A stretch of 64,000 nt of DNA from Malacoraja senta (lineage: Eukaryota), in NCBI GenBank assembly GCA_038087875.1, contig CM075991.1, positions 14,014,001-14,078,000 on the forward strand, in the 5' to 3' direction. The translations under genes were made by a program, and so were the position numbers. This document shows, in pieces, positions 13,287 through 64,000 of the stretch. Under the pieces are notes generated by a model. It was not told the origin of the DNA, searched no databases, and was given only the letters and a program-made list of their open reading frames with translations. Every line of letters starts with the position of its first letter. Within the stretch, counting starts at the first letter, position 1.

Positions 13287-16200
13287 ACAGGGCATTCAGC
13301 AGACACATGCTTTAGTTACTGGCCTTAGAGTTGAGAGATGGAAACTGTCCCTTTGGCCCATCATGCCCACGCCAACCAACATGCACCCATTTCCAGCGTG
13401 ACAACATCTTTCCCACAACATGGCGTCCAAAACTCAACACGATAAAAACGTCACTCATTCCTCGACCCGAAACGTCACCTATTTCCTTCACTCCATAGAT
13501 GCTGCCTCACCCGCTGAGTTTCTTCAGCATTTTTGTCTACCTTGGCTTTACCTTGCACTAAACGTTATTCCCTTATCATGTATCCATACAATGTAAATGG
13601 CCAGATTGTAATCATGTGTTGTCTTTCTGCTGACAGGATAGCACGCTACAAAAATGTTTCACTGTACCTTGGTACACGTGACAATAAACTAAACCGTCCA
13701 AGTGTCTATCAATGTTGTTTTACTTTGGAGTCACGTGAGTGACTACGTGAAGAAGGCCGTCAGCCCACATGCGCGTCATTATGTCTAGCGCATTGTGCAA
13801 CGCGCTGACTGGCAGGCGCGCTGCTCCTGCCAGCGGTAAGTTTAAACCCCAAGGTAAGTGTTAGACTTTCTAGGTTATGTTTTCTATTACAGGAATCTCT
13901 TCTCACAGAGTTTTCCTGTTGGATTTCGAGGCGAAGTCGGGATGGGCCGCGGGGAAACCTTTATGGACCGCGGGGTAATCCCAGTCACGGACCGCGGGGA
14001 ATCCCGGTCACGACCTCGGGGAATCCCGGCCACGGACCGCGGGGAACCGGCTACGGAGAGGGTAAGCCACTCAATTATATCTCACTCTCTGAGGAGGGGA
14101 GCGTAGGGAAGAGGCCCATTGACTCAAACAAGTCGGGCCAGGAGGATTCCTGATGGAGAGGATCCCCTCCTTCAATGGGTAACGTCTTCGGACGTCTAAC
14201 CCACATGGAGCACCTGATGGAGAGGTGCTCCACAATGGTATGCTCCAAGGAGGGAATTATATCACCGGGGGTCTCCTCGGGGCCCGCGGCAGCGGCACCA
14301 GTTTACAGGGCTGCACAGTGTCTCCCTCTCTGAGGAGGGCAGCAGTCAGGGTCAGTTCTGTCTGACTCGGAGTTCAGTACCACGAGGCACGAAGGGTATG
14401 GTCCGTGGAGGGGCCATATCAACACAGGTCTCGTCGGGGGCCTGCGGCAGCACCTGTTTCAGGGCTGCTTACTATCGCCCTCGCCATGGAGAGGAGTGCG
14501 AGGGGTCAGTGTGTAACTGACTCCAAACTGGGAAGTATGTTCGTGGAACATACTGGAGTACGTGTGTGAGGTACAAGAATGTCTGTCATTACATCCAGGT
14601 TTGCGACATCCTCACAAGCGAAGGAGAGCTGCAGGAAGAGCGGTTCCAGCCGTTGGCAGCAAAACCTCACGTCACGTCATAACAGGAACAGGTGACGGCT
14701 GTGAGACACCATGCACCTGTAAATTGTTCCTGAAAGTGCCGGCAGTGAACAGCGCTATCAGGGGTGACTTTGGAGGGGCATGGAACCCCAGGTAACCAGC
14801 CGTCGAATCTTCTCTTCAGGTAAGCCTATTCAACAGGTGGACCTGCATGAGGGAGCTAAAGCTGTCGAACTACGAGTACAGCCTCATCGTTTCGGCAACA
14901 ACACACCCCACGCCTCCATCGGCAGTAAGCGGTTCACTGAAGCTGGTGGCAGCCAGCAAGCTGGGCAGAGGTCTTTTAGGCCAAGGCCCAAGCCGGTCTC
15001 AGGAAAAATATGGAATCCACGTACCCTACCAGTCCTACTCTCCAATCAAGGACGGAAATAGAACCCGCATCAGGGGCCTTTGGGCTTACCACAAGACCAC
15101 CGGTACCCATGAAGGTAGGTGGGTCTGGTTCTTTCCGAAACATGGGGTATGTGGACCATTTACAAGTTGGTAATATTGACACTTATTTTTTGTACTAATG
15201 ACAAAGTAAACATGTGATTAGTTTATACTGCACAGTATACAAGGATTCCAAGCAGGCTTGGAATTGTGGCCAGAGTTGTCTTTTGAAGCAGCCTCAGGAT
15301 TATGGCCAGGTTTGCCTTTCGACACAGGCTCGGAAATATGACCAGAGTGTGTTTTCAAGGCAGGCTCGGAACTATGGCAGGCGTGGCCTGATCATTGTGT
15401 AAGATGCAGGATGTCGGTTCATCCCTGATTAACTCGCTTGTGCAGTATAGACATTTGAGCATAGCAAGCTTCACTACTGTCTAACAACTGATTTCCATTG
15501 GATCTTTATGGCATGCATTGATCTCAAAGATGCATACTGTTCAGTTCTCATTCACAGGGATCACAGGAGATATTTGAAATTTAGCTGGATGGGGCAATAA
15601 TAACGGTTAAAACGTTGCAAAATATGCTAACTTCAGTTCGCAGGCTATTTACCAAATTATTAAAACCGGTTCTTGGGCTGCTTGGAGCTCAAAAACACTT
15701 GTTATGGCCCAACTACATGATATTCTAAACGCTGTATTTTGCTAAAATTAATTGTTTCGGCCGTACACTATATTTGAGAAATTGGGGTTTCTCATCCATC
15801 CAGTTAAGTTTAAGTTGATACCAACTAGAGTTATTGATTGTTGGGATCTATCTTTAACTCTATTAATTTACTGTGACTCCGCCCTGCAGCAAGAGATTGG
15901 AATGATTAAAAGCCTGTAACAACCTTGTTGTTAGGAAGTAACCTCTATTCATCAAGTGTAATTGGCAATATAGTGGCTGTGTTTTCAGCTGTGCATTTGG
16001 ACCTTTGCATTATCAGAACTTACAACGTGCAAAGGAATAACTTCTGCAGTGCCATATAGGTCATTATTAACAGACCTATGCTATTACCAGCTGAAGCTAT
16101 CAAAGTCACAATGGTGGATGAACAGTATTCAACATTGTTCCTGTAACTTTTGCTCAGTAACTCTTCAGTTATATTACAAACTGATGCTAGTACTCAAAGA

Positions 16201-17410
16201 TGAAAAATTACGAATACCATCTCTAGTTACGCAGGCGGATGGGCTTTGCATGAGTTACCATTTTTCAGTTATATGGTATCAACTGCTGTAACTATAAGAC
16301 ACTAGCTGTATTCTATGGATTAAAAGTTTATTGTGCGAATATGCATAATCTGCATGCTCAACTCCAAGTTGATACACTATGGTGGTGGCATATGTTAATC
16401 ACATGGGTGCAGTCAAGTTAAATATCCTGTGATAATTTACCTAACCTCATTTGGCACTGGTATATCATCACGTAAAATCTATGACAACACAGAATGGATG
16501 TTGTATCACAAAGTATTTAATGACATTGTGGTTCGATGGAACAATGAATATCAATATGTTTACATCCAGGCTCAATCACCATTGTAAAAATATGTGGCAC
16601 AGTGGCAATAGATGTATTCTCGCTACACTGAGGAGGAATGTTCTTTATGTCTTTCCTCCATTTTTCCTCATCAGTCGGGTCTTGCACAAAATCCAGCAAG
16701 ATCTTGCCTCAGGCATTTCGTACTGCCTGACTGGCCTATGCAGCCATGGTTCCCGCGAAATGTTGGGAATAATATAGGACCTTATATGGTTATCCTAAAC
16801 ACAAAAATTTGGTGGTCCAACCTCGTGACTCGGGAAACCATCCTCTGCATGATAAAATCAATTTATAGACTTGCAGACTCTGAGAGACCGTTCCGGCGGC
16901 TCGGGTTGCCAGACTGATCTATGTACGTGCTCACTGCAGAGTGCAGGGATAGCACTGAAAAAGCAGCACATTTTTCCTCATCAGGAGATGGGAAGTGTTT
17001 TGTTTTAATGCCAATGTTACATATAATAAGGCACGGATAACTAACGTCTCGGAGTTCACTTTCAGATGGGTCTTTGACAATTAATTAAGTTACAGTACCA
17101 TTAACTGTGCCAACGTGCTTTCTCATCATAGTTGCTGCAGCGATCGGGACCCACTCTGTCGGGTCTAACCCTCTGATATCCAGATTTCTAAAGAATATCT
17201 TTAACGCAAATTCTCCCAGGCCCAGGTACTCGGAGATATGGGATGTTAGTAATTGTTCTAAAACTGCTTCGCCAGTGGGGCCCAGCTACATCTCTATCCC
17301 TGGTCTAACTCACTTTCAAAGTGGTTATGCTCATGGCGCCAGTCTCAGCGCTACGGGTCCAGCCACTACTTAAATTGTGACTGGACAGGATGGTTACATC
17401 TGCTAATAAT

Positions 17411-20400
17411 ATAACCATATAACCATATAACCATAACAGCACGGAAACAGGCCATCTCGGCCCTTCAAGTCCGTGCCGAACATTTAAATTTTTTTTTTAT
17501 TTTTGTATTTTTTTAATTAAAAATAAAATACTTCCCCCTAGTCCCATCTACCTGCACTCAGACCATAACCCTCCATTCCTTTCCCGTCCATATACCCATC
17601 CAATCTATTTTTAAAGGATAACATCGAACCTGCCTCCACCACTTCCACTGGAAGCTCATTCCACACAGCTACCACTCTCTGAGTAAAGAAGTTCCCCCTA
17701 ATGTTCCCCCTAAACTTCTGTCCCTTAATTCTCAAGTCATGTCCCCTTGTTTGAATCTTCCCTACTCTCAATGGGAAAAGCTTATCCACGTCCACTCTGT
17801 CTAACCCGCTCATAATTTTAAAGACCTCTATCAAGTCCCCTCTTAACCTTCTGCGCTCCAAAGAATAAAGACCTAACTTGTTCAACCTTTCTCTGTAACT
17901 TAGTTGCTGAAACCCAGGCAACATTCTAGTAAATCTCCTCTGTACTCTCTCTATTTTGTTGACATCCTTCCTATAATTAGGCGACCAAAATTGTACTCCA
18001 TACTCCAGAATTGGCCTCACCAATGCCTTGTACAATTTTAACATTACATCCCAACTTCTATATTCAATGCTCTGATTTATAAAGGCCAGCACACCAAAAG
18101 CTTTCTTTACCACCCTATCTACATGAGATTCCACCTTCAGGGAACTATGCACAGTTATTCCTAGATCCCTCTGTTCAACTGCATTCCTCAATTCGCTACC
18201 ATTTACCGTGTACGTCCTATTTTGATTTGTCCTGCCGAGATGTAGCACCTCACATTTGTCAGCATTAAACTCCATCTGCCATCTTTCAGCCCACTCTTCC
18301 AAATGGCCTAAATCTCTCTGTAGACTTTGAAAATCTACTTCATTATCCACAACACCACCTATCTTAGTATCATCTGCATACTTACTAATCCAATTTTCCA
18401 CACCTTCATCCAGATCATTGATGTACATGACAAACAACAGTGGACCCAACACAGACCCCTGAGGCACCCCACTAGTCACCGGCCTCCAACCTGACAAACA
18501 GCCATCCACCATTACTCTCTGGCATCTCCCATTCAGCCACTGTTGAATCCATCTTGCTACTCCACCATTAATACCCAACAATTGAATCTTCTTAACCAAC
18601 CTTCCATGAGGAACCTTGTCAAAGGCCTTACTGAAGTCCATATAGACAACATCCACTGCTTTACCCTCATCAATTTCCCTAGTAACCTCTTCGAAAAATT
18701 CAAGAAGATTAGTCAAGCATGACCTTCCAGGCACAAATCCATGTTGACTGTTCCTAATCAGACCCTGCTTATCCAGATGCTTATATATATTATCTTTAAG
18801 TATCCTTTCCATTAATTTGCCCACCACTGACGTCAAACTAACAGGTCTATAATTGCTAGGTTTACTCTTCGAACCCTTTTTAAACAACGGAACAACATGC
18901 GCAGTACGCCAATCCTCCGGCACTATTCCCGTTTCTAATGACATTTGAAATATTTCTGTCATAGCCCCTGCTATTTCTACACTAACTTCCCTCAATGTCC
19001 TAGGGAATATCCTGTCAGGACCTGGAGACTTATCCGTTTTCATATTTTTCAAAAGTGTCCGCACCTCCTCTTCTTTGAATCTCACAGTTTCCATTGCTAC
19101 TCTGCTCGTTTCCCTTACCTCACATAATTCCATATCCTTCTCCTTCGTGAATACCGAAGAAAAGAAATTGTTCAATATCTCCCCCATCTCTTTTGGCTCT
19201 GCAGATAGCTGTCCACTCTGACTCTCTAATGGACCGATTTTATTCCTTGTTATCCTTTTGCTATTAATATAGCTGTAGAAACCCTTTGGATTTACTTTCA
19301 CCTTACTTGCCAAAGCAACCTCATATCTTCTTTTAGCTTTTCTAATTTCTTTCTTAATATTCTTTTTACATTCTTTATACTCCTCAAGCACCTCATTTAC
19401 TCCATGCTGCCTATAATTATTGTAGATCTCTCTCTTTTTCCGAACCAAGTGTCCAATTTCCCTTGAAAACCATGGCTCTTTCCATTTTTTACTATTTCCT
19501 TTCAACCGAACAGGGACATAAAGATTCTGTACTCTTAAAATTTCACCCTTAAATGTCCTCCATTTTTCTTCTACATCCTTCCCATAAAACAACATGTCCC
19601 AATTCACTCCTTTTAAATCCTTTCGCATCTCCTCAAAGTTAGCCTTTCTCCAAACAAAAATCTCAACCCTAGGTCCAGTTCTGACCCTCTCCATAATTAT
19701 ATTGAAACTAATGGTATTGTGATCACTGGACCCGAAGTGCTCCCCGACGCATACCTCCGCCACTTGCCCTGTCTCATTTCCTAACAGGAGGTCCAGCACT
19801 GCCCCTTCTCTAGTAGGTACCTCTATGTATTGCTGCAAAAAACTATCTTGCACACATTTTACAAACTCCAAACCATCCAGCCCTTTTACAGAATGTGTTT
19901 CCCAGTCTATGTGTGGAAAATTGAAATCTCCCACAATCACTACCTTGTGCTTACTACTAATATCTGCTATCTCCTTACATATTTGCTCTTCCAATTCTCG
20001 CTCCCCATTTGGCGGTCTATAATATACCCCTATAAGTGTTGCTACACCTTTCCCATTTCTCAGTTCCACCCAAATAGCCTCCCTAGACGAGCCCTCTAAT
20101 CTATCCTGCCAAAGCACTGCTGTAATATCTTCCTTGACAAGCAATGCAACACCCCCACCTCTTGCCCCTCCAATTCTATCACCCCTGAAGCAACGAAATC
20201 CTGGAATATTTATTTGCCAATCACAGCCCTCCTGCAACCATGTTTCACTGATCGCCACAACATCATACTTCCAGGTGTCAATCCAGGCTCTAAGCTCATC
20301 CACCTTTCTTACAATGCTCCTAGCATTAAAATATACACATTTAAGAAACCCACCACCACTTATTCTCTGTTTATTATCTTTTTCTTCTTTCTCCCCTACA

Positions 20401-20494
20401 TTTTGGGTCCGAGTGCTTCCCTTCTCTGCCTCCTGCCTCCCACATTTTCCACTAGCTTTCTCTATTTGAGTCCCTCCCCCCAACCGTTCTAGTT
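17411..20494 (-). mobile_element. CR1 LINE (5'-truncated at the ORF1 stop) nested in the DIRS A recombinase
   Basis: Intact ORF2; 3' UTR with GGGCCGAGATGGCCTGTTTCCGTGCTGT and an (ATATGGTT)n tail at 17411-17437; YR sequence resumes on both sides. Confidence 0.95.
17538..20483 (-). CDS. CR1 ORF2: APE endonuclease plus reverse transcriptase, 981 aa, uninterrupted (non-ATG start as called)
   Basis: APE motifs YFNARS, ISETW, YRPP, GDFN, SDH; RT motifs NYRPVSLTS, QHGF, DFSKAFD, GVPQGSVLGP, KYADD; CR1 C-terminus TRGH...FFTQRVV. Confidence 0.95.
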   Translation of the reverse strand: MGGGTQIEKASGKCGRQEAEKGSTRTQNVGEKEEKDNKQRISGGGFLKCVYFNARSIVRKVDELRAWIDTWKYDVVAISETWLQEGCDWQINIPGFRCFRGDRIGGARGGGVALLVKEDITAVLWQDRLEGSSREAIWVELRNGKGVATLIGVYYRPPNGERELEEQICKEIADISSKHKVVIVGDFNFPHIDWETHSVKGLDGLEFVKCVQDSFLQQYIEVPTREGAVLDLLLGNETGQVAEVCVGEHFGSSDHNTISFNIIMERVRTGPRVEIFVWRKANFEEMRKDLKGVNWDMLFYGKDVEEKWRTFKGEILRVQNLYVPVRLKGNSKKWKEPWFSREIGHLVRKKREIYNNYRQHGVNEVLEEYKECKKNIKKEIRKAKRRYEVALASKVKVNPKGFYSYINSKRITRNKIGPLESQSGQLSAEPKEMGEILNNFFSSVFTKEKDMELCEVRETSRVAMETVRFKEEEVRTLLKNMKTDKSPGPDRIFPRTLREVSVEIAGAMTEIFQMSLETGIVPEDWRTAHVVPLFKKGSKSKPSNYRPVSLTSVVGKLMERILKDNIYKHLDKQGLIRNSQHGFVPGRSCLTNLLEFFEEVTREIDEGKAVDVVYMDFSKAFDKVPHGRLVKKIQLLGINGGVARWIQQWLNGRCQRVMVDGCLSGWRPVTSGVPQGSVLGPLLFVMYINDLDEGVENWISKYADDTKIGGVVDNEVDFQSLQRDLGHLEEWAERWQMEFNADKCEVLHLGRTNQNRTYTVNGSELRNAVEQRDLGITVHSSLKVESHVDRVVKKAFGVLAFINQSIEYRSWDVMLKLYKALVRPILEYGVQFWSPNYRKDVNKIERVQRRFTRMLPGFQQLSYRERLNKLGLYSLERRRLRGDLIEVFKIMSGLDRVDVDKLFPLRVGKIQTRGHDLRIKGQKFRGNIRGNFFTQRVVAVWNELPVEVVEAGSMLSFKNRLDGYMDGKGMEGYGLSAGRWD

Positions 20495-21091
20495 GTTTAT
20501 TATGTAGTTAAGCAGAGCAGACCAGGGGCGTCAGGTCCTAAACAATTTTTCATGGCATACCCCATGGACCTTCGGTTGTCTGTGGTCACACATTTACAAC
20601 AATACGTCAAGGTCACCAAGAGCCTTAGAAGCTCTGCACTAGCAATGTTTGTTAGTTACTAAAAACCTCATAAAGGTATCTATCCAGACCATCTCCAGGT
20701 GGTCAAACGGGTTTTGGCTTATGCAGCAGTAGATACTAATATTTTCTATCTCACTCCACTAGGGCTGCTACAATATTAGCAGCAAGGGTTATGTACGTTC
20801 CACTGGACCACATCCTAGCGGCTGCAGGATGGTCAAACGAACGAACTTTCTAACATTTTATAATAACCCATTGCCAGACCGGGTTTTTTTTGTGCCAAAT
20901 TCCATTTACGTTTTGTTTCATAGTTTCCCCCAGGATGGTAGTGGTCACTATTATTTTCCTTTGATGATTAAAGCATCAGCATTTTTAACAAACTATGCCA
21001 TGGCTGAATGCATTAATCTTTTTCACTCATCCATGGTCAACGTTTGTGACGCCTGGACTCGTATCCGGCATGAAATCACAGAGCTTCAAAG

Positions 21092-21204
21092 TCTTCACGT
21101 AGTCACTCACGTGACTCCGAAGTAAAATAGTAAGATTAAACGAGAACTTACCAGTTTGAAGTTTGATCTTTATTTTATGAGGAGTTACGATGAGCGATTA
21201 CGTG
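21092..21204 (+). repeat. DIRS A internal complementary region (ICR)
   Basis: First 36 nt are the reverse complement of the left terminus (13718-13753, 1 mismatch). The remainder is the reverse complement of the right terminus (21351-21428, 1 mismatch). Confidence 0.92.
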
Positions 21205-22629
21205 CCCACCGCTCCCAACCCTCATATTATAGAGGTCATCTGGTAGTTCTAGTTCTCTCCAATCTTACTATGTTCAGGTCAACTACTGTTATCTGTGATT
21301 TCACTCCGCTGCTTTGAAGATTGACGCACATGCGGGCTGACGGCCTTCTTCACGTAATCGCTCATCGTAACTCCTCATAAAATAAAGATCAAACTTCAAA
21401 CTGGTAAGTTCTCATTTAATCTTACTATAATAGTACCTTCCTCAACTGCCTCCTCCAGCAGCTGGATCCATTTACACACAGACCTCTATAATAAACCTCT
21501 GAATTATTAAAGACAGCCATCATTAGTGTCCCTTTTTGAAGAATTCTCACTTATAAGGACAAAAAGTAAAGTCCCAAATTGTGTCTGAAAGTTACCTTGA
21601 AAAGAATATGCTTCACACTGTGACTATTAGTTCAAGGAAATGCTTGTTTGGAACACTAACTATAGTTTGGAACATTTAAAAATGCTTAATTAGAGATTTG
21701 GGCGGCACAGTTGTGCAACTGGTAGAGCCGCTGCCTCATAACGTAATAGACCGAGCTTCGATCCTAACCTTTAGTGCTGTCTGTGTGGAGTTTGTACGTT
21801 CCCTCTGTGACTGTGTTTCCCCAGGTGCCCCGGTTTCCTCCCACATCTCAAAGACGTGCGGGTTTGTAGGTTAATTGGCCCTCTATAAATTACCTCCAAT
21901 GTGTAGGGGGTTCGGCTCAGTCTATTGTCACGTGCAGCGAGGTGCAGTGAAAAGCTTTTGTTGCGTGCTGACCAGCCAGATGAAAGACAACACATGATTA
22001 CAATCGAGCCATTTACAGTGTACAGATACATGATAAGGGAATGACGTTTAGTGCAAGGTAAAGTTAGTGAAGTCTGATCACGGATCAGTCTGAGGTTCCC
22101 CAATGAGGTAGATAGTAGTTCAGGACTGCTCTCAGGTAGGATGGTTCAGTTGCCTGATAGGATCTGGGAAGAAACTGCCCTAGAATCTGGAGAAACTGTT
22201 CCTAAAACTGCATGGCCTAGAACTAGTGATCGATGGTCGACATGCACTTGGTGGGCCGAAGGTGGCTGGTTCCATGCTGTACCCATCAATGAAAATGTGA
22301 ATCCAGATTTTTGTGGACAGCACAAAGGGTTGCCCCTCACCATTCACCTCACTTACACCCAACCTCTGGGATCTTCTGAGACCATTTAAAGACTTCATCT
22401 AGTTGGACATCAGAACCAGCGAGCGTTTCAAGGCACAGTGAGACACGTTGAAGAACTCACCATGAACTAAGTAGCAATAAGCTTGAAATGTAATCTTAAA
22501 TTATATACAGAATTTACTCCAGCACTCTGTGTCCTTTTGTTAATTTACCCGTTACTAGTTAAAAAACAGTTTGTGGAATGTGGAAAGGCCATCAGTATAT
22601 ATGTGTGTGTGTGTGTGTATATATATGTC

Positions 22630-34285: not shown

Positions 34286-34370
34286 GAATTATGGTCTCGC
34301 CCTGCACCTGAAACCCCTCAGGTTATGGTCTTCCCTCTGGACATGGAACTGTCAGTTCTGGTCCTCATGT

Positions 34371-34721
34371 GGACCAGTAAACCACAAGTCCTGGTCTCTC
34401 CTTGCACCTGAACCCAGAGGTGGTGGTCTACCCCTGGACCAGTAAACCACAAGTCCTGGTCTCTCCTTGCACCTGAACCCAGAGGTGGTGGTCTACCCCT
34501 GGACCAGTAAACCACAAGTCCTGGTCTCTCCTTGCACCTGAACCCAGAGGTGGTGGTCTACCCCTGGACCTGAAACCCACAAGTCCTGGTCTCTCCTTGC
34601 ACCTGAACCCAGAGGTGGTGGTCTACCCCTGGACCAGTAAACCACAAGTCCTGGTCTCTCCTTGCACCTGAACCCAGAGGTGGTGGTCTACCCCTGGACC
34701 TGAAACCCACAAGTGCTGGTC
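34371..34721. repeat. 65-bp minisatellite, about 5.4 near-identical copies
   Basis: Units start at 34371, 34436, 34501, 34566, 34631 and 34696. Confidence 0.95.
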
Positions 34722-34889
34722 CTCTCCTGCCAACGACACTCCAGAAGCCCAACGCAATCCTCTGCATAATTGGCACCGCATCAAACATCACCTCCACGAC
34801 TGCACTGTGTGTACTGTGTACAACATGCACCTGCAGTTACTCGCCCTAGCTACTCCGACAGCACTTCCCAAACCCACCAAGGACAAAGG

Positions 34890-37231: not shown

Positions 37232-38193
37232 TAAAGAGGATAGGGTGTGTTTGGAATGAGCTGCCAGAGGCTGGTACAATTATAATGTTTACAAGACAAC
37301 ATTGATGGAACGGAAAGATTTGGAGAGACACGGGCCAAATGTGGGCGACTGGGACTTTCTCAAGTAGACTCCTTGGTCAGCATGGACGAGTTGGGCCGAA
37401 GGGCCTGTTCTGTGCTGTATAAGGCGAGACTCCATGCACAATATTCATTGTCGTTGCTTATTGCCCCTGAAGTGAGGGGGCAAATGGCCATACACCATGT
37501 TGGTGGGTCTGGACCCACAAAGTCATGGACTCCTCGAGCTTGGACCAGCACCTCCACACCTATCATTTCCATCAAACTGTGTAGGAAGGAACTGCAGGTG
37601 CTGGTTTAAAACTGAAGATAGACACAAAATACTGGAGTAACTGACCGGGTCAGGCAGCATCTCTGGAGAGAAAGAATGGTTGACGATTCATTTCGAGACC
37701 CTTCTTCAGTCTGATATAATAGTAAGATTAAACGAGAACTTACCAGTTTGAAGTTTGATCTGTATTTTATGAGGAGTTACGATGAGGGATTACGTGAAGA
37801 GCCCGTCAAAGCAGCGGTGTGGAATCACAGGAAACGCAATAATTGAAATAAACATAGTAAAGAAAAGGAGAACTAAGATACCAGTTGATCTATAATCGAG
37901 GGTGGGAGCGGAGGGCACGTAATCCCTCATCGTAACTCCTCATAAAATACAGATTAAACTTCAAACTGGTAAGTTCTCGTTTAATCTTACTATTTTACTT
38001 CGGAGTCACGTGAGTGATACGTGAAGATTTTAAAGCTCTGTGATTTCAAACCGTGTAACAGTTCATACTTCACTCGCTGCCGAAGTCATTCAAGGGGGGA
38101 AGTATGTTATCGTAATCAACCATGAATCTGTTTGTAAACAATAATTGTATTTATTAAACAATAACAAAAGAAAAATGCTCCCCCGGGCTTAAA

Positions 38194-39177
38194 TTATATA
38201 TTTGCAGATTCTAAAATTCTTTCTGCAAATAACACAGGTTCTGCTAGCGGCTTATTGTAGAACGTTTGGAACGTTTTCTCCGTGGACCACCCCGCTGTAG
38301 CCAGGATGTGGTCCAGTGGTACGTCCATCCTTTTAGCCGCCGATGTGGATGCTGCCCTAGTGGAGTGAGATGAATATACGTCAGTGTCCACTCCAGCAGC
38401 TCCCAGTACCTGCTTTAGCCACCTTGAGATGGTTTGGCTCGACACCCGACCATGAGGTTTCTTGTGGCTGACCCATAAGGCTTTTTCTCTCCCTCGGGAA
38501 TCTCTTGTTGTGTTGATGTAAGTCAGTAGGTGAGTCATGACACACAACCGTGGGTCAGGTGGGTATGCCCGGAAATCCATAACTAGGCCTGAAGTTCCTG
38601 GCCTGCTCTGCTTTACCAGCTCCTGAATGGTGAATGATACCCGGTCTGGTGTTACCATGTTGTCCAGTCGCAGTAAGTGGAGGGACTGGACTCTTTGTGC
38701 TGAGACTAGTGCCATCAGCATGACCGTTTTCAAGGTTAGCTGTTCCAGAGTGAGAGACCTGGCTGGTGACCATCCCCTTAGGTATGTCAGGACCACACTG
38801 ACATCCCAGATTCTGGTGTATCTAGGTCTAGGGGGGTTAGAGTTGAATATACCCCTCATGAGTTTAATCACCAGTGGGTGAGACCCTATGGCCTGTTGTC
38901 CTGGCACCTGTTTTAAGTAGGCTGACAGAGCACTTCTGGCAATATTGATGGCGCTGTAGCTCAATCCTTCATTATGGTGAAGGCCGGCCAGGAACTCCAG
39001 TACATTGGTTATGGTTGCAGATGAGTACGTTGTCCCAGTATTCGAGCAGTATGTTTCCCACTTCCTGATGCTCGATAGGTATTGTTTCCTGGTGGACATA
39101 CGGTGGGACGCTGTCATCGTGTTGATGGTCCTGTCAGACAATCCCAGGCCCAGCAGTGGTCCTTTCATAACCTGCAA
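38194..39177 (-). CDS. DIRS tyrosine recombinase, 327 aa, intact
   Basis: SAM-like N-terminus (LSYSAINIARSALS), HPLV..LMRG, PRY..IWDV, catalytic R (SAQR), HSTR, AGW, FQTFY. Confidence 0.93.
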   Translation of the reverse strand: MQVMKGPLLGLGLSDRTINTMTASHRMSTRKQYLSSIRKWETYCSNTGTTYSSATITNVLEFLAGLHHNEGLSYSAINIARSALSAYLKQVPGQQAIGSHPLVIKLMRGIFNSNPPRPRYTRIWDVSVVLTYLRGWSPARSLTLEQLTLKTVMLMALVSAQRVQSLHLLRLDNMVTPDRVSFTIQELVKQSRPGTSGLVMDFRAYPPDPRLCVMTHLLTYINTTRDSRGREKALWVSHKKPHGRVSSQTISRWLKQVLGAAGVDTDVYSSHSTRAASTSAAKRMDVPLDHILATAGWSTEKTFQTFYNKPLAEPVLFAERILESANI

Positions 39178-41190
39178 CCCAGTAGGTTAATTTTGTCATG
39201 GCATGGATGACTTATGCCTGATACCGGGTGAGTCAGTAGGTCTGGGCTACTGGGAAAGGTCATAGGAGTTTCAATGACCATGTCGAGGACCACTGGGAAC
39301 CATGGCTGTGTAGGCCAGTCGGGTACTATCAAAATACCTGAAGCAGAGTCCAGCTGTATTTTGCATAGTACCCTACTGATGAGGCAGAAGGGGGGAAAAG
39401 CATAAAATAAATAGTTTCCCCAGTTCAGCGCGAATGCATCTATCGCTACTGCCTCAGGGTCTGGTTCCCAAGCGACATACATTGGTACCTGGTGAATTAG
39501 TCTGGATGCAAAGAGATCGATATCTGGTGTGCCATATTGGTTTGTAATTTTAGCAAAAGCTCTAGGATTTAACATCCATTCGGTGTTATTATTGAATTTG
39601 CGTGACCTGGTGTCTGCCACTGTATTTAGCTTACCTGGTAGGTAAGTTGCTGATAGCCAAATATGTCTATCGACACACCATTGCCAGATTTTGTTGACCA
39701 AATTGTCACATGATATCGATTTTATTCCGCCCATATGGTTAATATAGGCCACCACCGTGGTATTATCAATTTGTAAACGAACATGCAAATGGTGCATATC
39801 CGTGGAATATGCTTTTAAACCATAAAACGCACCCAACATTTCCAAGTAATTTATGCCCAGTGTTTGTAGTAAAGATGATTCTAGGTTAGTCCATCTACCA
39901 CCTGTGCTGGATATGGTATTAGTTGTTCCCCCAGCCTTGAGCACTGGCATCTGTTTGTATAATTAATGTTGGGTTATTGATGATGATAGGGCTGGAAACT
40001 ATGCCAAATGTGTTCTATCCACCATTGTAACTCTGATATTGCTTCAATGGGTAATTTCATGGTTCGGTCAAAGTGACCTGCATGTCGTTTCAATGCCTGT
40101 ACTTTTGCCCTTTGTAGGTTCTGATAGTGCAGGGGTCCAAATTGTGTAGCTGGAAATGCTGCTACCATTTTGCCAATTACTCTTGCCACTTGTCGAATGG
40201 TTGGTCGATTGCTTACCATTAAATTGTTACACGTCTGTGCCAATTCTGCTGCTTTATCTTTTGGCAACGTTACAGACATGTGGACTGAGTTAATTGTGAA
40301 TCCCAGATAGTCCATAGTTGTGGATGGCGTCAACTTAGATTTATCTGGATGTATGACAAATCCCAGGGTTTCAAACAATCGTTTGGTAGCTAATACAGCT
40401 GATTTAGCCAACTCCATGGTTTTGCCTACTATTAGGATATCATCAAGATATGCCATGACAATATGTCTTTGTTTTCTTAATGTTGCCAAGGCTGGTTTTA
40501 ATATCTTGGTAAATAGTCTAGGAGCTGATGTTAACCCATTAGGCAACGCTTTTATACTGCCATAGTTGCCCCATCCAGGTAAATTTCAGGTATCTGCGAT
40601 GACCCTTGTGAATGGGTACTGAATAGTAGGCATCTTTTAAATCAATGCTTGCCATAAAGTATCCTTTGGAAATCAGTTGTTTGGCAGTTACAAATGTTTC
40701 CATTTTGAAATGTACATACTTAACAAAGGTATTTAGTGAGGTTAAGTCAATGATGATGCGACATCCACCATATTTTTTTGCTTTTGGTAAATATATTTGA
40801 GACAAATTCCAAAGGTTCATGTTTGGATTTCTCAATGAAACCCTTTGTAAGTAACCTCCCCAGTTCTGCTTGAGCCTCTAGTTTTTCTTTGACTGAGAGG
40901 GTAAAGACCCTTTGGGGTACGTGCTGAACTGGTGGCATGTTTTCTTGAATGAACTCTATTTTGTATCCACGAATACTGTTACGTATATAACTATCATTCG
41001 TGAGAGACCTCCATGCGTCAATGAACAGGTGTAATCTCCTCCCTGTTAGTACAGTTCCCCCACTTTTTATATGCTGGTAGGAACCAGACCCACCTACCTC
41101 CATAGTTATGGGAGTGTTCATTGCTTCTGTTTCTTCATCCGCCGTTGTACTACTGGATGTCCTGTTGGTTGGGGGTGGCGCATTTTCCAT
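39165..41190 (-). CDS. DIRS pol (RT, RNase H, DAM-like methyltransferase), split by four +1 frameshifts
   Basis: RIIIDL, SIDLKDAY, LPNGLTSAPRLFTK, YLDD, YLGF, QTDAS..GWG, INYLE, DNTTVVAYINHMGG, NTVADTRSR, DIDLFAS, YAFPPF, PDWPTQPWFP. Confidence 0.9.
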
Positions 41191-42503
41191 GGGGTCCGCT
41201 CTGGGCCCTGGCCTAAAAAAGGCTTTCGGGGATGGAATGCGGACCCCGAGCTTTCACCAGTCCGGAATGTTTGTCTTCGACTGGTGGACGCGGTGGGGTA
41301 CTGCCGTCTGGGTTGTGTGGGTATGCTCGTTCCGGGGTCTGCCCTCATGAGGCTAAATGCTTTGGCCTCGTCCTCCAGGTCTTTTACCTGTTTTGTTAAG
41401 TCCTTCCCGAATAACAGGATCTGTGGCTCTGAGGCCGGTGTTTTACACAGTCCTGCATACCTGGGATTGAGGGCAGGTCTTATTATCTCCTTGCGGAGGT
41501 TGTTGATCTCGTATTGGGTGTTGCACAGCAGAGCCAGAGTGTCTTGCTGGTTTGTGGTCATATCCACCCCATCCACGGAACGAGCATAGGATGTTATCCC
41601 TGTTGTCAGGAGCTTGAGGATGCGTTGTAATTTTAGCTCCTGGCTCCGGATACTCTGTCCAACATACCCCCAGATTTGGCTGTTAACGGCCGGTACATTA
41701 AGCGAACTGCAGTTCTCCGGAGGCGAGTAGAGTTCTAGTGCCTCATTAAGTACCTGATCTTGTAGGGGTTTGAGGGACAGGTGGTTAATGCTGGCCGCCA
41801 GTTTTGGCTCCAATGGTCGCCCTGCTCGTGGTGTAGCCACGTAGCGATTCACCGCACCCAGCAGCTCTTCCTGATCCTGTACCTCAAGCGTACTCCCGAC
41901 ATCTTCAGCCAATGACCCCTGTTCCTGACCAGCCCAGTCCTGGTCGCCAACGCTGCCCTCGGCTGAGGGGGAAGCAATGGCCAGTGCATTGTAAGGCACT
42001 GCTGTGGGAGTGCCTGAACCCCCTTTGCGAGACTGCTCCAGGTCCCGAAGCAAGTCTCGCTGGAGCAGTTGCTCCATGAGCCTTTCCATTCGGCTCAGGC
42101 GGCTAGTTCTGCCGCTCTCAGGCGGACCCTCCTCATCGGAGTCAGACATAACCGGCCGGTCTGTTTTTTGTCTTGATTTGCCTCCAGCCCGCTGCTGCTC
42201 CTCAGGCTGCGCTAGTGGTACTGGGCTCAGGTCGGTCTCGATGAGGGTGGACCGCAGCATGAGCGGTCCAGGTGCCGCCTCTCGCCCCCCACTGATGGGA
42301 CCCTCCGGTTCTGTTGGAGTCGAACGGGGGGCGGTTTTCTTTGCTTGCCGTGCTTTACTCATTTTCCCAGTTTTACCTGGAATTACAGAGCAGAGCAAGC
42401 TTGCTATTACGACCTCAGAGTAAGTACTTTTTAAACTTGTAGCGGGAGCGCCTTGTACTCCCGTTCGTCGCTGTTGCACTGCGTGAACGCTAATTTCGCG
42501 CAT
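41118..42503 (-). CDS. DIRS ORF1 (gag-like); probable start at MSKARQAKK (~42362)
   Basis: Open 461-codon frame in the gag position; PENCSSLNVPAVNSQIW and LRKEIIRPALN...LLFG motifs typical of DIRS ORF1. Confidence 0.8.
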   Translation of the reverse strand: MREISVHAVQQRRTGVQGAPATSLKSTYSEVVIASLLCSVIPGKTGKMSKARQAKKTAPRSTPTEPEGPISGGREAAPGPLMLRSTLIETDLSPVPLAQPEEQQRAGGKSRQKTDRPVMSDSDEEGPPESGRTSRLSRMERLMEQLLQRDLLRDLEQSRKGGSGTPTAVPYNALAIASPSAEGSVGDQDWAGQEQGSLAEDVGSTLEVQDQEELLGAVNRYVATPRAGRPLEPKLAASINHLSLKPLQDQVLNEALELYSPPENCSSLNVPAVNSQIWGYVGQSIRSQELKLQRILKLLTTGITSYARSVDGVDMTTNQQDTLALLCNTQYEINNLRKEIIRPALNPRYAGLCKTPASEPQILLFGKDLTKQVKDLEDEAKAFSLMRADPGTSIPTQPRRQYPTASTSRRQTFRTGESSGSAFHPRKPFLGQGPERTPWKMRHPQPTGHPVVQRRMKKQKQ

Positions 42504-42604
42504 GCGTGCTGGACGGGCTCTTCACGTAGTCACTCACGTGACTCCGAAGTAAAATAAAACAATAATACATCTAAACCGAAATACCCTTCCTATACCCTTG
42601 GACC

Positions 42605-43610
42605 CTCGGTGCTGGGACCCCAGTTAATCACAATATATATTATCGATTTAGACGAAGGAATTAAATGTGACATCTCCAAGTTTGCAGATGACACAAAGCT
42701 GGGTGGCAGTGTGAGCTGTGATGAGGATGCTATGAGGCTGCAGGGTGACTTGGATAGGTTGGGTGAGTGGGCAGATGCAAGGCAGATGCAGTATAATGTG
42801 GATAAATGAGAGGTTATCCACTTTGGTGGCAAGAACAGGAAGGCAGATTATTATCTGCATGGTGTCAGATTAAGAAAAGGGGAGGTGCAACGAGACCTAG
42901 GAGTCCTTGTACATCAGTCACTGAAAGTAAGCATGCAGGTACAGCAGGCAATGACATGTTGGCTTTCATTGCTAGAGGATTTGAGTTTAGGAGCAAGAAG
43001 GTCCTACTGCAGTTGTACAGGGTCCTGGTGAGACCGCACCTGGAGTATTGTGTGCAATTTTGCTCTCCTAATTTGAGGGTGGACATTCTTACTGTTGAGG
43101 GAGTGCAGCGTAGGTTCACCAGGTTAATTCCCGGGATGGCGGGACTGACATATGATGAAAGAATGGATTGAGTGGACTTACTGTATATCCACTGGGATTT
43201 AGAAGGATGAGAGGATATCTTATAGAAACATATACAATTCTTAAGCGATTGGACAGGCTAGATGCAGGAAAAATGTTCCCAATATTGGGGGAGTCGAGAA
43301 CCAGGGGTCACAGTTTAAGAATAAGGGGTAGGCCATTTAGGACTGAGATGAGGAAAAACGTTTTCACCCAGAGAGGCGTGAATCTGTGGAGTTCTCTGCC
43401 ACAGAAGGCAGTGGAGGCCAATTCACTGGATGTTTTCAAGAGAGAGTTAGATATAGCTCTTAGGGCTAAAGAAATCAAGGGACATGGGGAGAAGGCTGGA
43501 ACGGGGTACTGATTGTGGATGATCAGCCATGATCATATTGAATGGCGGTGCTGGCTTGAAGGGCCGAATGGCCTACTCCTGCACCTATTTTCAATGTTTC
43601 TATGTTTCTA
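42605..43610 (+). mobile_element. CR1 LINE 3' portion (RT C-half), decayed
   Basis: SVLGPQL, ISKFADDTKLGG, VRPHLEYCVQF, TRGHSL; (CTATGTTT)n tail. Confidence 0.9.
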
Positions 43611-47472: not shown

Positions 47473-48019
47473 CCCGAAACATCACCAATGCCTTTTCGCC
47501 AGGGATGCTGCCTGACCTGCTGAATAGCTCCAGCATTTTGCGTCTATCTTCGGTGTAAACCAGCATCTGCAGTTCCTTCCTGCCCTATAAGTCCTATAGA
47601 TAGACACAGAAAGCTGGAGTGACTCAGCGGGTCAGATAGCATCTCTGGAGAAAAGGAATAGGTGACGTTTCGGGTTGAGAACCTTCTTCAGACCTTCAGT
47701 TCCTTCCGACACTTCAAGTCCGGTGTTTGGTGACTACTTCTTCCTGCAGTCTCTAGATGGCAGTATCGCTCCACAGCATCCTGGTCACCATCCCACACTG
47801 CAAGCCTCCTGGACCAGCAGTCATTGGAAACACAGTGGAGAATGCCACTTGTGATGCTGGGGAATATTGACCAGCCTATCCCATGCAACTGAGAACCACT
47901 GCAAACCACTCATCAAATCTCCTTGCTACATCAAAGAACCTTTATTGAGCCATGTATCGCAAGGCAGAATGCAGCACTCTCTCAAGATTAGTTTAATATG
48001 ATCATGGCTGATCATCCAT

Positions 48020-49931
48020 GCACCCTTCATCAAAAACTGCCGCCGTGACATCAACCGCCTCAACCTCTCCACTCCCCTGTCTCACTCCAATCTCTCCCCC
48101 CCTGAACGCACTGCCATCGACTCACTCCACAACAACCTAGATTGGGTTATCAAACCCGCCGACAAGGGAGGTGCCGTGGTAGTCTGGTGCGTCGATCTCT
48201 ACAAAGCTGAGGCCACGCGCCAACTCTCGGACACCTCCTCCTACTTACCCCTGGACCATGACCCCACTGACGAGCACCAGGCCACCATCTCCAGCACCAT
48301 CACCGACTTCATCCACTCCCACGCCCTGCCCGACCGAGCCTCCAACCTCATCGTTCCCCAGCCCCGCACAGCCCGCTTTTACCTTCTCCCCAAAATCCAC
48401 AAACCTGACTGTCCCAGTAGACCCATTGTCTCTGCCTGTTCGTGCCCCACCGAACTCATCTCCACCTACCTCGACTCCATACTATCCCCCTTGGTTAAAT
48501 CCCTCCCTACCTATGTTCAAGACACCTCAGACACTCTCCGTCGTCTCCGCGCATTCCACTCTCTAGGCCCTCACCCCCTCATCTTCACCATGGACGTCCA
48601 GTCATTGTACACCTCCATCCCTCACCAGGATGGTCTCGAAGCCCTCCGTTTTTTCCTCGACCGTAGAAGCAATCTATACCCGGCCACTGACACCCTCCTC
48701 CGCCTAGCGGAGCTGGTCCTTACCCTCAATAACTTCTCATTTGACTCCTCCCATTTCCTCCAAATACAAGGCGTAGCTATGGGCACACGCATGGGCCCCA
48801 GCTACGCCTGCCTCTTTGTCGGGTACGTAGAACAATCCTTGTTCAATGCGTACCAGGGCCCCATCCCCGACCTCTACCTCCGCTACATCGATGATTGTTT
48901 TGGTGCCACATCCTGCACCCACACACAACTGACTGACTTCATCCGCTTCACCACCAACTTCCATCCGGCACTCAAATACACCTGGACCATTTCCAACACT
49001 TCCCTACCATTCCTTGACCTCACTATCTCCATCGCAGGTGATAGACTTCTTACCGACATCCACTACAAACCTACCGACTCCCATGGCTATCTGGACTACA
49101 CTTCTTCCCAACCTGCTTCCTGTAAGGACTCCATCCCCCACTCCCAATTCCTCCGTCTACGCCGCATCTGCTCCCAGGATGAGGCGTTCCACACCAGGGC
49201 ATCCGAAATGTCCTCATTCTTCAGGGAACGGGGGTTCCCCTCCTCCACCATAGATGAGGCTCGCACCAGGGTCTCTGCAATACCCCGCAACACTGCTCTC
49301 TCTCCCCATCCCCCCACTCACAACAAGGGCAGAGTCCCCCTAGTCCTCACCTTTCACCCCACCAGCCGTCACATACAACAAGTGATCCTCCGTCAGTTTC
49401 GCCACCTCCAACGTGACCCCACCACTCGCCACATCTTCCCATCTCCCCCCATGTCTGCCTTCCGCAAAGACCGCTCCCTCCGTAACTCCCTTGTCAATTC
49501 TTCCCTTCCCTCCCGTACCACCCCCTCCCCGGGTACTTTCCCTTGCAACCGCAAGAGATGCAACACTTGTCCCTTCACCTCCCCCCTCGACTCCATTCAA
49601 GGACCCAAGCAGTCATTCCAGGTGCGACAGAGGTTCACCTGCATCTCCTCCAACCTCATCTATTGCGTCCGCTGCTCTAGATGCCAGCTGATCTACATCG
49701 GTGAGACCAAGCGGAGGTTTGGCGATCGTTTCGCCGATAACCAACCAACCTGACCTCCCGGTGGCTCAGCACTTCAACTCCCCCTCCCATTCCGTATCTG
49801 ACCTCTCTGTCCTGGGTCTCCTCCATGGCCACAGCGAGCAACACCTGAAATTGGAGGAAATGCACCTCATATTCCGCTTGGGCAGTCTACATCCTGGGGG
49901 CTTGAACATTGAATTCTCCCAATTCTGCTAG
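48020..49931 (+). pseudogene. Penelope RT/GIY-YIG ORF, frameshifted near 49737 (21-bp deletion plus 4-bp insertion relative to the 61738 copy)
   Basis: ORF 48176-49753 continues in another frame to 49931 (PVAQHFN...GLNIEFSQFC). Confidence 0.85.
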
Positions 49932-50135
49932 CCCTTGCTGTCCCCTCCCCTTCATCAGCCCTCTGGTTGTCTCCTCCCCTCCCCCAGCCCTCGGGCTCCT
50001 CCTCAGCCTTTTTTCCTTTCTTCTCCCCACCCCCTATCAGTCTGAAGAAGGGTTTTGGCCCGAAACGTTGCCTATTTCCTTCGCTCCATAGATGCTGCTG
50101 CACCCGCTGAGTTTCTCCAGCACTTTTGTGTACCA
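48020..50135 (+). mobile_element. Penelope-like element, 5'-truncated (RT plus GIY-YIG), with an HHR-bearing 3' repeat
   Basis: IKPADKGGAVV, LPKIHK..PSRPIVS, TMDVQSLYTSIP, GVAMG, RYIDD, LPFLD, YKPTD; CNRKRCNTC; YCVRCSRCQLIYIGET; HHR-like core at 50042-50069. Confidence 0.93.
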
Positions 50136-54574: not shown

Positions 54575-54774
54575 NNNNNNNNNNNNNNNNNNNNNNNNNN
54601 NNNNNNNNNNNNNNNNNNNNNNNNNNNNNNNNNNNNNNNNNNNNNNNNNNNNNNNNNNNNNNNNNNNNNNNNNNNNNNNNNNNNNNNNNNNNNNNNNNNN
54701 NNNNNNNNNNNNNNNNNNNNNNNNNNNNNNNNNNNNNNNNNNNNNNNNNNNNNNNNNNNNNNNNNNNNNNNNNN
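54575..54774. other. Assembly gap (200 N)
   Basis: Run of N. Confidence 1.
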
Positions 54775-61594: not shown

Positions 61595-61737
61595 CTACTG
61601 CCGAGGAGTATTTCCAAGAAACAATTGTTGACATCGGTTTCAGTGACTGTTATCTTATCTTCAGAGGAGCAGTGATCTATGTACATCAGTCCGGTCAACT
61701 GTCGATCTGTACTTTGCTTATCCCAGGCATAGTCTGT

Positions 61738-62587
61738 CCTCACCTTTCACCCCACCAGCCGTCACATACAACAAGTGATCCTCCGTCAGTTTCGCCACCT
61801 CCAACGTGACCCCACCACTCGCCACATCTTCCCATCTCCCCCCATGTCTGCCTTCCGCAAAGACCGCTCCCTCCGTAACTCCCTTGTCAATTCTTCCCTT
61901 CCCTACCATACCACCCCCTCCCCTGGTACTTTCCCTTGCAACCGCAAGAGATGCAACACTTGTCCCTTCACCTCCCCCCTCGACTCCATTCAAGGACCCA
62001 AGCAGTCGTTCCAGGTGCGACAGAGGTTCACCTGCATCTCCTCCAACCTCATCTATTGCATTCGCTGCTCTAGATGTCAGCTGATCTACATCGGTGAGAC
62101 CAAGCGGAGGCTTGGCGATCGTTTCGCCGAACACCTCCGGTCGGTCCGCAATAACCAACCTGACCTCCCGGTGGCTCAGCACTTCAACTCCCCCTCCCAT
62201 TCCGTATCTGACCTTGCTGTCCTGGGTCCCGTCCATGGCCACAGCGAGCAACAGCATAAATTGGAGGAAATGCACCTCATATTCCGCTTGGGCAGTCTAC
62301 ATCCTGGGGGCTTGAACATTGAATTCTCCCAATTCTGCTAGCCCTTGCTGTCCCCTCCCCTTCATCAGCCCTCTGGTTGTCTCCTCCCCTCCCCCAGCCC
62401 TCGGGCTCCTCCTCCGCCTTTTTCCTTTTTTCCTTTCTTCCCCCCACCCCCTATCAGTCTGAAGAAGGGTTTCGGCCTGAAACGTTGCCTATTTCCTTCG
62501 CTCCATAGATGCTGCTGCACCCGCTGAGTTTCTCCAGCATTTTTGTGTACCTTCGATTTTCCAGCATCTGCAGTTCCTTCTTTAACA
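61738..62587 (+). mobile_element. Penelope-like 3' fragment (GIY-YIG plus HHR-bearing terminal repeat) with a 10-bp TSD
   Basis: ORF 61775-62341 has an intact GIY-YIG (YCIRCSRCQLIYIGETKRRLGDRFAEH); TSD CATAGTCTGT at 61728-37 and 62588-97; near identical to 49345-50135. Confidence 0.92.
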
Positions 62588-62700
62588 CATAGTCTGTTCG
62601 GTGGTTAGTCCAAGGATTGCAAGTTTTGCTCACACCCACATGAGTCTGCAGTATTTGTTATCAGTTACCCCCATACGAGGCAGTATTTCAGTTTTCAGCT

Positions 62701-64000
62701 ACACCTGGGCTGGAATGGAACCAATGTCCTTGGGGGAGTGTTTGCCAGTGCTGTCGGGGAGGATTTAAACTAATGTGGCAGGGGGATGGGAGCATGAGTA
62801 GAGAGACAGAGGGGTGTAAAATTAGGGTAGAAGCAATAGGTAGCAAGGTGAAAAGTAAAAGTGGCAGGCAGACAAATCCAGGGCAAAAATCAAAAAGGGC
62901 CACTTTTCAACATAATTGTATAAGTGGTAAGAGTGTTGTAAAAACCAGCCTGAAGGCTTTGTGTCTCAATGCAAGGAGCATTCGTAATAAGGTGGATGAG
63001 TTGAATGTGCAGATAGCTATTAATGACTATGATATAGTTGGGATCATGGAGACATGGCTCCAGGGTGACCAAGGCTGGGAGCTGAACATCCAGGGATATT
63101 CAATATTCAGGAGGGATAGACAGAAAGGAAACGGAGGTGGGGTAGCGTTGCTAGTTAGAGAGGAGATTAATGCAATAGAAAGGAAGGACATTAGCTTGGA
63201 GGATGTGGAATCCATATGGGTAGAGCTACGAAACACTAAGGGGCAGAAAACGCTAGTGGGTGTTGTGTACAGGCCACCTAACAGTAGTAGTGAAGTTGGG
63301 GATGGCATCAAACAGGAAATTAGAAATGCGTGCAACAAAGGTAAAACAGTTATAATGGGTGACTTCAATCTACATATAGATTGGGTGAATCAAATTGGCA
63401 GGGGTGCTGCGGAAGAGGATTTCTTGGAATGTATGCGGGATAGTTTTCTAAACCAACATGTAGAGGAACCAACGAGAGAGCAGGCTATTCTAGACTGGGT
63501 ATTGAGTAATGAGGAAGGGTTAGTTAGCAGTCTTGTTGTGCGTGGCCCCTTGGGCAAGTGACCATAATATGGTTGAGTTCTTCATTAGGATGGAGAGTGA
63601 CATTGTTAATTCAGAAACAAGGGTTCTGAAATTAAAGAATGGTAACTTTGAGGGTATGAGACGTGAATTGGCCAAGATAGACTGGCAATTGATTCTTAAA
63701 GGGTTGACGGTGGATATGCAATGGAAGGCATTTAAAGACTGCATGGATGAACTACAACAATTGTTCATCCCAGTTTGGCAAAAGAATAAATCAGGGAAGG
63801 TAGTGCATCCGTGGATAACAAGGGAAATCAGGGATAGTATCAAAACAAAAGATGAAGCGTACAAATTAGCCAGAAAAAGCAGCCTACCAGAGGACTGGGA
63901 GAAATTCAGAGTCCAGCAGAGGAGGACAAAGGGCTTAATTAGGAAAGAGATAAATAGATTATGAAAGAAAACTGGCAGGAAACATAAAAACTGACTGTAA
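62701..64000 (+). mobile_element. CR1 LINE: end of ORF1 (SGNH-like C-terminus) and APE domain of ORF2, running off the window
   Basis: HLGWNGTNVLGGVFASAVGEDLN-stop, then LNARS, METW, YRPP, GDFN; frameshift near 63555 before SDHN. Confidence 0.9.

Follow-up and report, generated by a model that had tools for sequence, protein, structure and literature searches.

The DIRS1-like retrotransposon designated here element B is probably an ordinary full-length decayed copy of an abundant skate family, with real damage in its pol gene. It lies on contig CM075991.1 of the Malacoraja senta assembly GCA_038087875.1, within the window, the whole stretch of 64,000 nucleotides analysed (positions 14,014,001 to 14,078,000 of the forward strand); coordinates below count from the first letter of the window. 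A first-pass annotation had proposed that the locus may be a fully intact autonomous element, its four pol frameshifts being long-read insertion errors, and the helper of a related copy, element A. The elements and their parts are as follows.

37718..42555, minus strand: DIRS1-like element B, 4,838 bp, ATT at both ends, limits drawn from termini and flanks
42512..42555, minus strand: left ITR of element B, a divergent part plus a 17-bp conserved core (42528-42512)
41118..42362, minus strand: gag-like ORF of element B, 414 aa, open, with skate protein homologues
39165..41190, minus strand: pol of element B, split into five pieces, with RT, RNase H and MT domains
38194..39186, minus strand: tyrosine recombinase (YR) ORF of element B, open, its ATG at 39168 overlapping the pol stop
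37916..38027, minus strand: ICR of element B, complementary to each of the termini, with its AAT junction at 37994-37992
37791..37807, minus strand: conserved core of the right ITR of element B, 17 bp
37718..37790, minus strand: right terminus of element B, divergent ITR and right extension
13715..21430, plus strand: element A, of a related DIRS1-like family, coding regions decayed, with a young LINE in its YR (~17415-20510)

Element B is a DIRS1-like element as defined in the available text of PMC3266345. ATT stands at 42555 and at 37720-37718, and the common flank extends by one base only; the element has NTT ends with no longer target-site duplication, as read from the occupied site. Over their divergent and conserved parts the ITRs match at 38 of 43 aligned positions, with a perfect core of 17 bp, and the ICR matches the element’s own termini at 36/37 and 78/79 positions around a 3-bp circular junction, AAT. 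PAT-like or Ngaro identity was considered and rejected; both need split direct repeats, and the repeats of element B are inverted. The first-pass description of a shortened right ITR core was correct, with 17 bp in element B versus 35 bp (two mismatches) in element A. At 37806 the right ITR of element B is ~22–24 nt shorter than that of element A, and the counterpart of the missing part is kept at the left end of element B. Indirect evidence that other copies of the family are longer here comes from an organism B contig whose match ends exactly at 37806, leaving 41 letters unfitted. A SINE-like repeat copy (37597-37717) adjoins the right end of element B and a region of LINE fragments (42606-43500) its left end.

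As the first-pass annotation had it, gag and YR are open, over 42521-41118 and 39186-38194, respectively. The gag frame has its ATG at 42362. Of the eight homologues found for its product, the best three (P0087-P0089, 70–74% identical) are predicted skate proteins, from Rhinoraja longicauda and Leucoraja erinacea, and point to a probable skate host. The 414-aa ORF matched no Pfam family, so that its naming as Gag rests on its position upstream of pol. The pol frame is open upstream to 41253 and has in-frame ATGs at 41190, 41121 (overlapping the gag stop) and 41103. The 674 codons claimed for pol between 41190 and 39165 were recovered: the 2026 nt read as 673 residues plus a stop, with X at the breaks. 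Pol matches Pfam RVT_1 and, weakly, RVT_3 (E 0.017), and is identical to P0001 at 449 of 643 positions. Searches of Pfam and PHROGs returned no direct match for the MT domain; the last pol piece is 39% identical to P0074 (E 1e-63) over a span that includes the RNase H and Dam-like regions of P0074. YR matches Pfam Phage_integrase (E 5.9e-07) and retains R165, H274, R277, W300 and Y310 (ORF numbering), which are invariant in the 8–9 aligned homologues. A PDB sequence search with YR gave chance matches only. Neither YR nor the last pol piece had a relative in viral contigs (0/2 candidates) or prokaryote genomes (0/28), and the 34-nt ICR pattern had no match in metagenome contigs.

Frameshift-aware alignment of pol to 12 of its 86 homologues, chosen as high-ranked and near full length, placed four +1 shifts in 12/12 cases (40788-40779, 40553-40547, 40006-39976 and 39930); two of the 12 give further shifts, at alignment ends only. 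None of the 12 alignments met a stop codon, as had been claimed. The breaks, together with a fifth one-base excess upstream of gag, are listed below.

40772..40788, minus strand: break 1 (+1), within the stretch A4-gc-A7 and next to a substitution
40550..40553, minus strand: break 2 (+1), in A4, the extra base absent from family contigs in 4/4 runs
39994..39998, minus strand: break 3 (+1), in T3/C2, the extra base absent from family contigs in 4/4 runs
39928..39932, minus strand: break 4 (+1), in G5, adjoined by a private substitution at 39926, the extra base absent in 4/4 runs
42453..42454, minus strand: fifth private +1, in the 5' leader, in a run of two, absent from family contigs in 4/4 runs

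That all four are +1 shifts stood up to this comparison; that all are simple homopolymer insertions did not, because break 1 combines an insertion with a substitution and break 3 lies in a run of only 2–3 bases. At break 1 the window encodes Y at a motif position where none of 56 homologues has Y and 28 have D. The run at break 3 is a T run in organism C contigs and a C or T run in organisms B and D. Location in homopolymers is also weaker evidence than it sounds, since 49% of pol bases fall within runs of at least two and 21% within runs of at least three. Outside the coding regions, the ICR lacks one base at 38017/38018 and carries one substitution at 37955.

Element B belongs to a very abundant family. 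Parts of the element occur in 24 public runs, none of them recorded as RNA; the two organism C runs (X19, X20) contain 0.59 and 0.54 of its words at about 1.7–2.0% divergence, and the shares of the other runs are 0.15–0.25. Short-read contigs were compared from 4 of the 24 runs (X19, X20, X2 and X21); the rows inspected were the best-supported 40 of 313 for substitutions and 12 of 16 for indels, and summed depth in these runs is no measure of copy number. At 39928, 40550, 42453 and 39996 (in some cases 39994), the family contigs of 4/4 runs are one base shorter than the window. Break 1 is absent among the 12 of 16 indel rows inspected and was seen indirectly, through five X20 contigs that end there with a single G in place of two other bases in the window. 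A family free of the extra pol bases, as the first-pass annotation implied, was accordingly confirmed directly at three of the four sites and indirectly at break 1, and none of the family contigs shown carries an extra base. A real mutation private to this copy would give the same picture as an assembly error. Among the pieces listed for these runs, no contig joins unique flank to element B. The window alleles at 41338 and 41354 have zero depth in both organism C runs, so the locus is either absent from them or was dropped as a rare variant.

Organism C contigs also lack single bases at 40361 and 40885 (pol) and at 41215 and 41757 (gag), at 22–71% of depth, the same range as at sites that nearly all copies should show. 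These four losses are absent from the window and from organisms B and D. The deletions, read without phase, suggest that frameshifted variants were amplified in organism C; we counted this apparent amplification of real 1-bp frameshifts in favour of decay. One base is likewise missing from organism C contigs at 38124, within the same span of depths and again in contrast to the window and organisms B and D.

Element B shows several signs of age. Its ICR differs from its termini at 2 of 116 positions (one deletion, one substitution), where identity of about 100% is expected at insertion according to the available text of PMC3266345. The right ITR core of 17 bp, shorter than any in the published range, is a further sign. 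The best-supported 40 of 313 substitution rows divide into 20 that are private to the window (at least 85% of depth in all four runs), 5 that belong to organism C, 13 to organisms B and D, and 2 in the flank. The private changes comprise 15 transitions, with 12 nonsynonymous, 6 synonymous and 2 non-coding, which appears in line with no selection (neutral expectation of the synonymous share, 0.29). This test separates poorly, since the rows where organisms B and D differ are likewise mostly nonsynonymous (10/13). It also counts against age that only 1 of the 20 private changes is a CpG loss, in a row selection biased against CpG sites.

Conservation in pol was judged by aligning 56 homologues of 550–800 aa, out of 86. 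Five private pol residues of element B replace a state common to family contigs and homologues; they are the Y for D at break 1 given above, I for N in the MT motif (I in 0/56, N in 48/56), T for A beside break 4 (T 0/56, A 46/56), R for G (R 0/56, G 34/56) and N for D (N 4/56, D 32/56). Against age, however, only 4 of 113 strongly conserved columns differ in the window, a count inside the range of 0–14 seen among 12 homologues. Pol contains no stop codon, where 0.7–2.3 would be expected for 18–60 substitutions. Two further patterns were rejected as signals: a G-to-A strand bias (8 versus 2 private changes) pointing to deaminase editing had no common motif and was not significant, and a YR kept in cis (3/4 YR changes synonymous, no YR frameshift) would rest on small numbers, with the YR of element A destroyed.

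We propose the following history for element B as a decayed copy. In the DIRS-like cycle described in the literature, transcription and reverse transcription are followed by completion of the ends on the ICR and by integration, thought to be carried out by YR at a 3-bp site. The extra bases would be real slippage duplications of the neighbouring base, and about 1% of other change would have been gained alongside them; all of this would date from after insertion or from a parent lineage that was itself copied in trans. Element B would no longer make a working Pol; it may still encode Gag and YR and would be no source of RT.

The main competing explanation, which we consider rather unlikely, attributes at least part of the one-base excesses, and perhaps all of them, to local errors in the consensus of a long-read assembly prone to insertions, on a locus that is truly aged, with its substitutions, ICR damage and short ITR, and whose pol would be open. 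The first-pass diagnosis of insertion error retains some force here. Five of the six private 1-bp indels of element B are insertions, and 5/5 organism-C-only 1-bp indels among the rows shown are deletions (Fisher about 0.015, calculated by hand from 12 of 16 rows). The four pol breaks cluster within 852 bp (P 0.027), and pol lacks stops. That all four are +1 has a P of at most 0.047 against 21/45 (47%) such shifts in older copies of the window, and the true value is lower because this baseline includes −2 events, as one checked case shows. Clustered errors in multi-copy sequence are also documented: the accessible portion of PMC7736813 describes ~1 error/kb in a polished nanopore assembly, clustered, in multi-copy genes and half of them substitutions. 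Human de novo indels show deletion to insertion ratios of 2.74:1, or 1.5:1 for copy-count changes, and real germline indels are often such copy-count changes (PMC4448676, in the part available), a point that also speaks for real damage. A control based on SINEs was sparse, with six private 1-bp insertions and three deletions in 84 copies.

The same diagnosis is weakened by the clean, young ORFs 17–20 kb and 5–7 kb away and by break 1, which requires a substitution as well. A LINE ORF (2,970 bp, 989 aa) and a Penelope-like ORF (1,752 bp, 583 aa) have no frameshift over 4,722 bp and 86 runs of at least four, where the rate of element B predicts 4.4 (P0 0.012; conditional test 0.05, a comparison weakened because both ORFs were noticed for being open). 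Of six homologues of the LINE ORF, four match it in a single frame over 926–946 residues; two match over their own length. The two Penelope-like copies differ by 21 mismatches without a 1-bp gap in 768 bp. With such young ORFs nearby free of frameshifts, the window is not broadly noisy. Moreover, seven indel events per estimated 20–80 substitutions in element B is near the natural ratio, and 16 repeat pairs within the window show 18 gaps per 288 mismatches (16 substitutions per gap). The single gap in the window, 200 N at 54575-54774, also counts against error; a 200-N gap is reported for one HiFi plus YaHS assembly in the part of PMC12134992 available, and as other pipelines may share it, it is a weak pointer to such an assembly here. 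Together, the readings that invoke error hold about one chance in three, the larger share of it for a locus that is damaged all the same.

Repeats of other kinds were also noted in this window of repeat-rich animal DNA. On the minus strand at 17538-20507, a young LINE with the open 989-aa endonuclease-RT ORF is inserted in the YR of element A. Two copies which we take to be Penelope-like from reading of the protein (48002-50134 and 61736-62551, plus strand) are 94% identical, each continuing into the same SINE-like tail, and the 583-aa open ORF of the first is ended by a 17-bp deletion. A second LINE family (62644-64000, plus strand) has no stops over ~1.2 kb, with a −2 frameshift near 63556 and another frameshift near 63950. 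A tandem array of 65-bp units occupies 34294-34786, its middle copies 93–95% identical.

It is very unlikely that element B is in truth fully intact and autonomous and served as the helper of element A. In favour of this explanation, element B lacks no domain or catalytic residue, element A would have needed a helper, and the termini of the two are 95–100% alike; in the available text of PMC7192593, the RT of DIRS-1 acts in trans. Yet this explanation requires four errors and tolerance of five conserved-residue changes, together with ICR damage and a short ITR in an element type whose ICR is essential in DIRS-1 (PMC7192593, same text). The assembled element does not have the three uninterrupted ORFs of an autonomous copy, pol having four +1 shifts, nor termini identical to the ICR with full ITRs. 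Full intactness is therefore improbable whether or not the breaks are errors, given the five pol residues, the ICR deletion and substitution and the 17-bp right ITR core. As for the helper role, the interior identity of elements A and B is only 66% in pol and 72% in the 3' part. Any active member of an abundant family could serve, so that element B has no special role. In PMC7192593 a truncated DIRS-1 failed to finish retrotransposition in trans, a result of limited weight since the marker stayed unspliced.

The case of element A is of interest in its own right. Its pol shows 20 frameshifts and 8 stops against P0001 (218/475 identical), and its ICR still matches its own termini at 112 of 114 positions, a combination that points to a helper. 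Element A was probably copied in trans when already coding-dead, about as recently as element B, although gene conversion is a rival explanation for its fresh ICR and termini. Helpers exist, and nothing ties element A to element B.

Returning to element B as a decayed copy, its gag and pol frames overlap in a way that suggests how intact members of the family could express Pol.

41214..41220, minus strand: heptamer T TTT TTA, as read in the gag frame, at a place where the −1 (pol) frame is open too

Heptamers of the U UUU UUA type drive −1 frameshifting in HIV-1. In a region that is otherwise poorly conserved, F-L followed by a codon starting with G is kept at the heptamer in 6/6 gag homologues that reach it. 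Sufficient upstream sequence for inspection was available at 16 of 24 metagenome DIRS loci. At one of these, L001 (3471), where both frames are long and open, A AAA AAC takes the corresponding position and there is no in-frame ATG; A AAA AAC recurs in five L001-related loci with broken frames, and other metagenome loci have T TTT TTC. RNA folding downstream of the heptamer is unremarkable (z +0.81). Two alternatives to −1 frameshifting are a splice acceptor at the heptamer letters and stop-start coupling at ATGA, which occurs at both ORF junctions of element B (41121-41118 and 39168-39165, minus strand). We tentatively hypothesize, while regarding it as rather doubtful, that the breaks are real, that most spread of the family is by full-length frameshifted copies carried as passengers in trans, and that its intact members make Gag-Pol by −1 frameshifting at U UUU UUA. 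Candidate passengers would be element A, the high-depth variants of organism C with one base deleted in gag or pol, and perhaps element B, with its dead pol and open gag and YR. Our literature search turned up no proposal of gag-pol frameshifting in DIRS1-like elements; the subject may be treated in reviews by Poulter and colleagues. For the YR of Ngaro elements, frameshifting was proposed in a review quoted in the accessible part of PMC13003380.

As it stands, element B adds a further aged copy to an abundant retrotransposon family and is of little consequence in itself. If the breaks were errors, the assembly would miscount intact elements and one candidate active vertebrate DIRS would be gained, a kind already reported, for example in Xenopus. 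The more useful by-products are a signal, open to test, of how DIRS pol is translated, and evidence that in skates coding-dead DIRS elements with fresh termini may have been mobilised in trans.

No description of a skate DIRS family appeared in the literature searched. The skate gag proteins P0087-P0089 and the pol P0001 are alike in sequence to those of element B, belong to other families or species and are annotated only as uncharacterized. The Xenopus DIRS-like families are comparable by description, the available text of PMC9210276 reporting recent bursts with both potentially active and broken copies in these vertebrate families. Dictyostelium DIRS-1, at 4,814 bp, likewise has its ends completed via the ICR, but differs in its long YR/pol overlap, long ITRs and demonstrated activity (PMC7192593, as available), whereas element B is known from sequence. 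With the DIRS1-like superfamily as set out in the accessible part of PMC3266345, element B shares gag, an RT-RH-MT pol and YR, ITRs of divergent and conserved parts, a right extension, an ICR with a 3-bp overlap, and ATT termini with an AAT junction, the commonest type. It departs from that superfamily in a conserved ITR of 17 bp against the reported 31–304 bp, in a pol/YR overlap of only ~20 nt, and in a pol that is broken four times.
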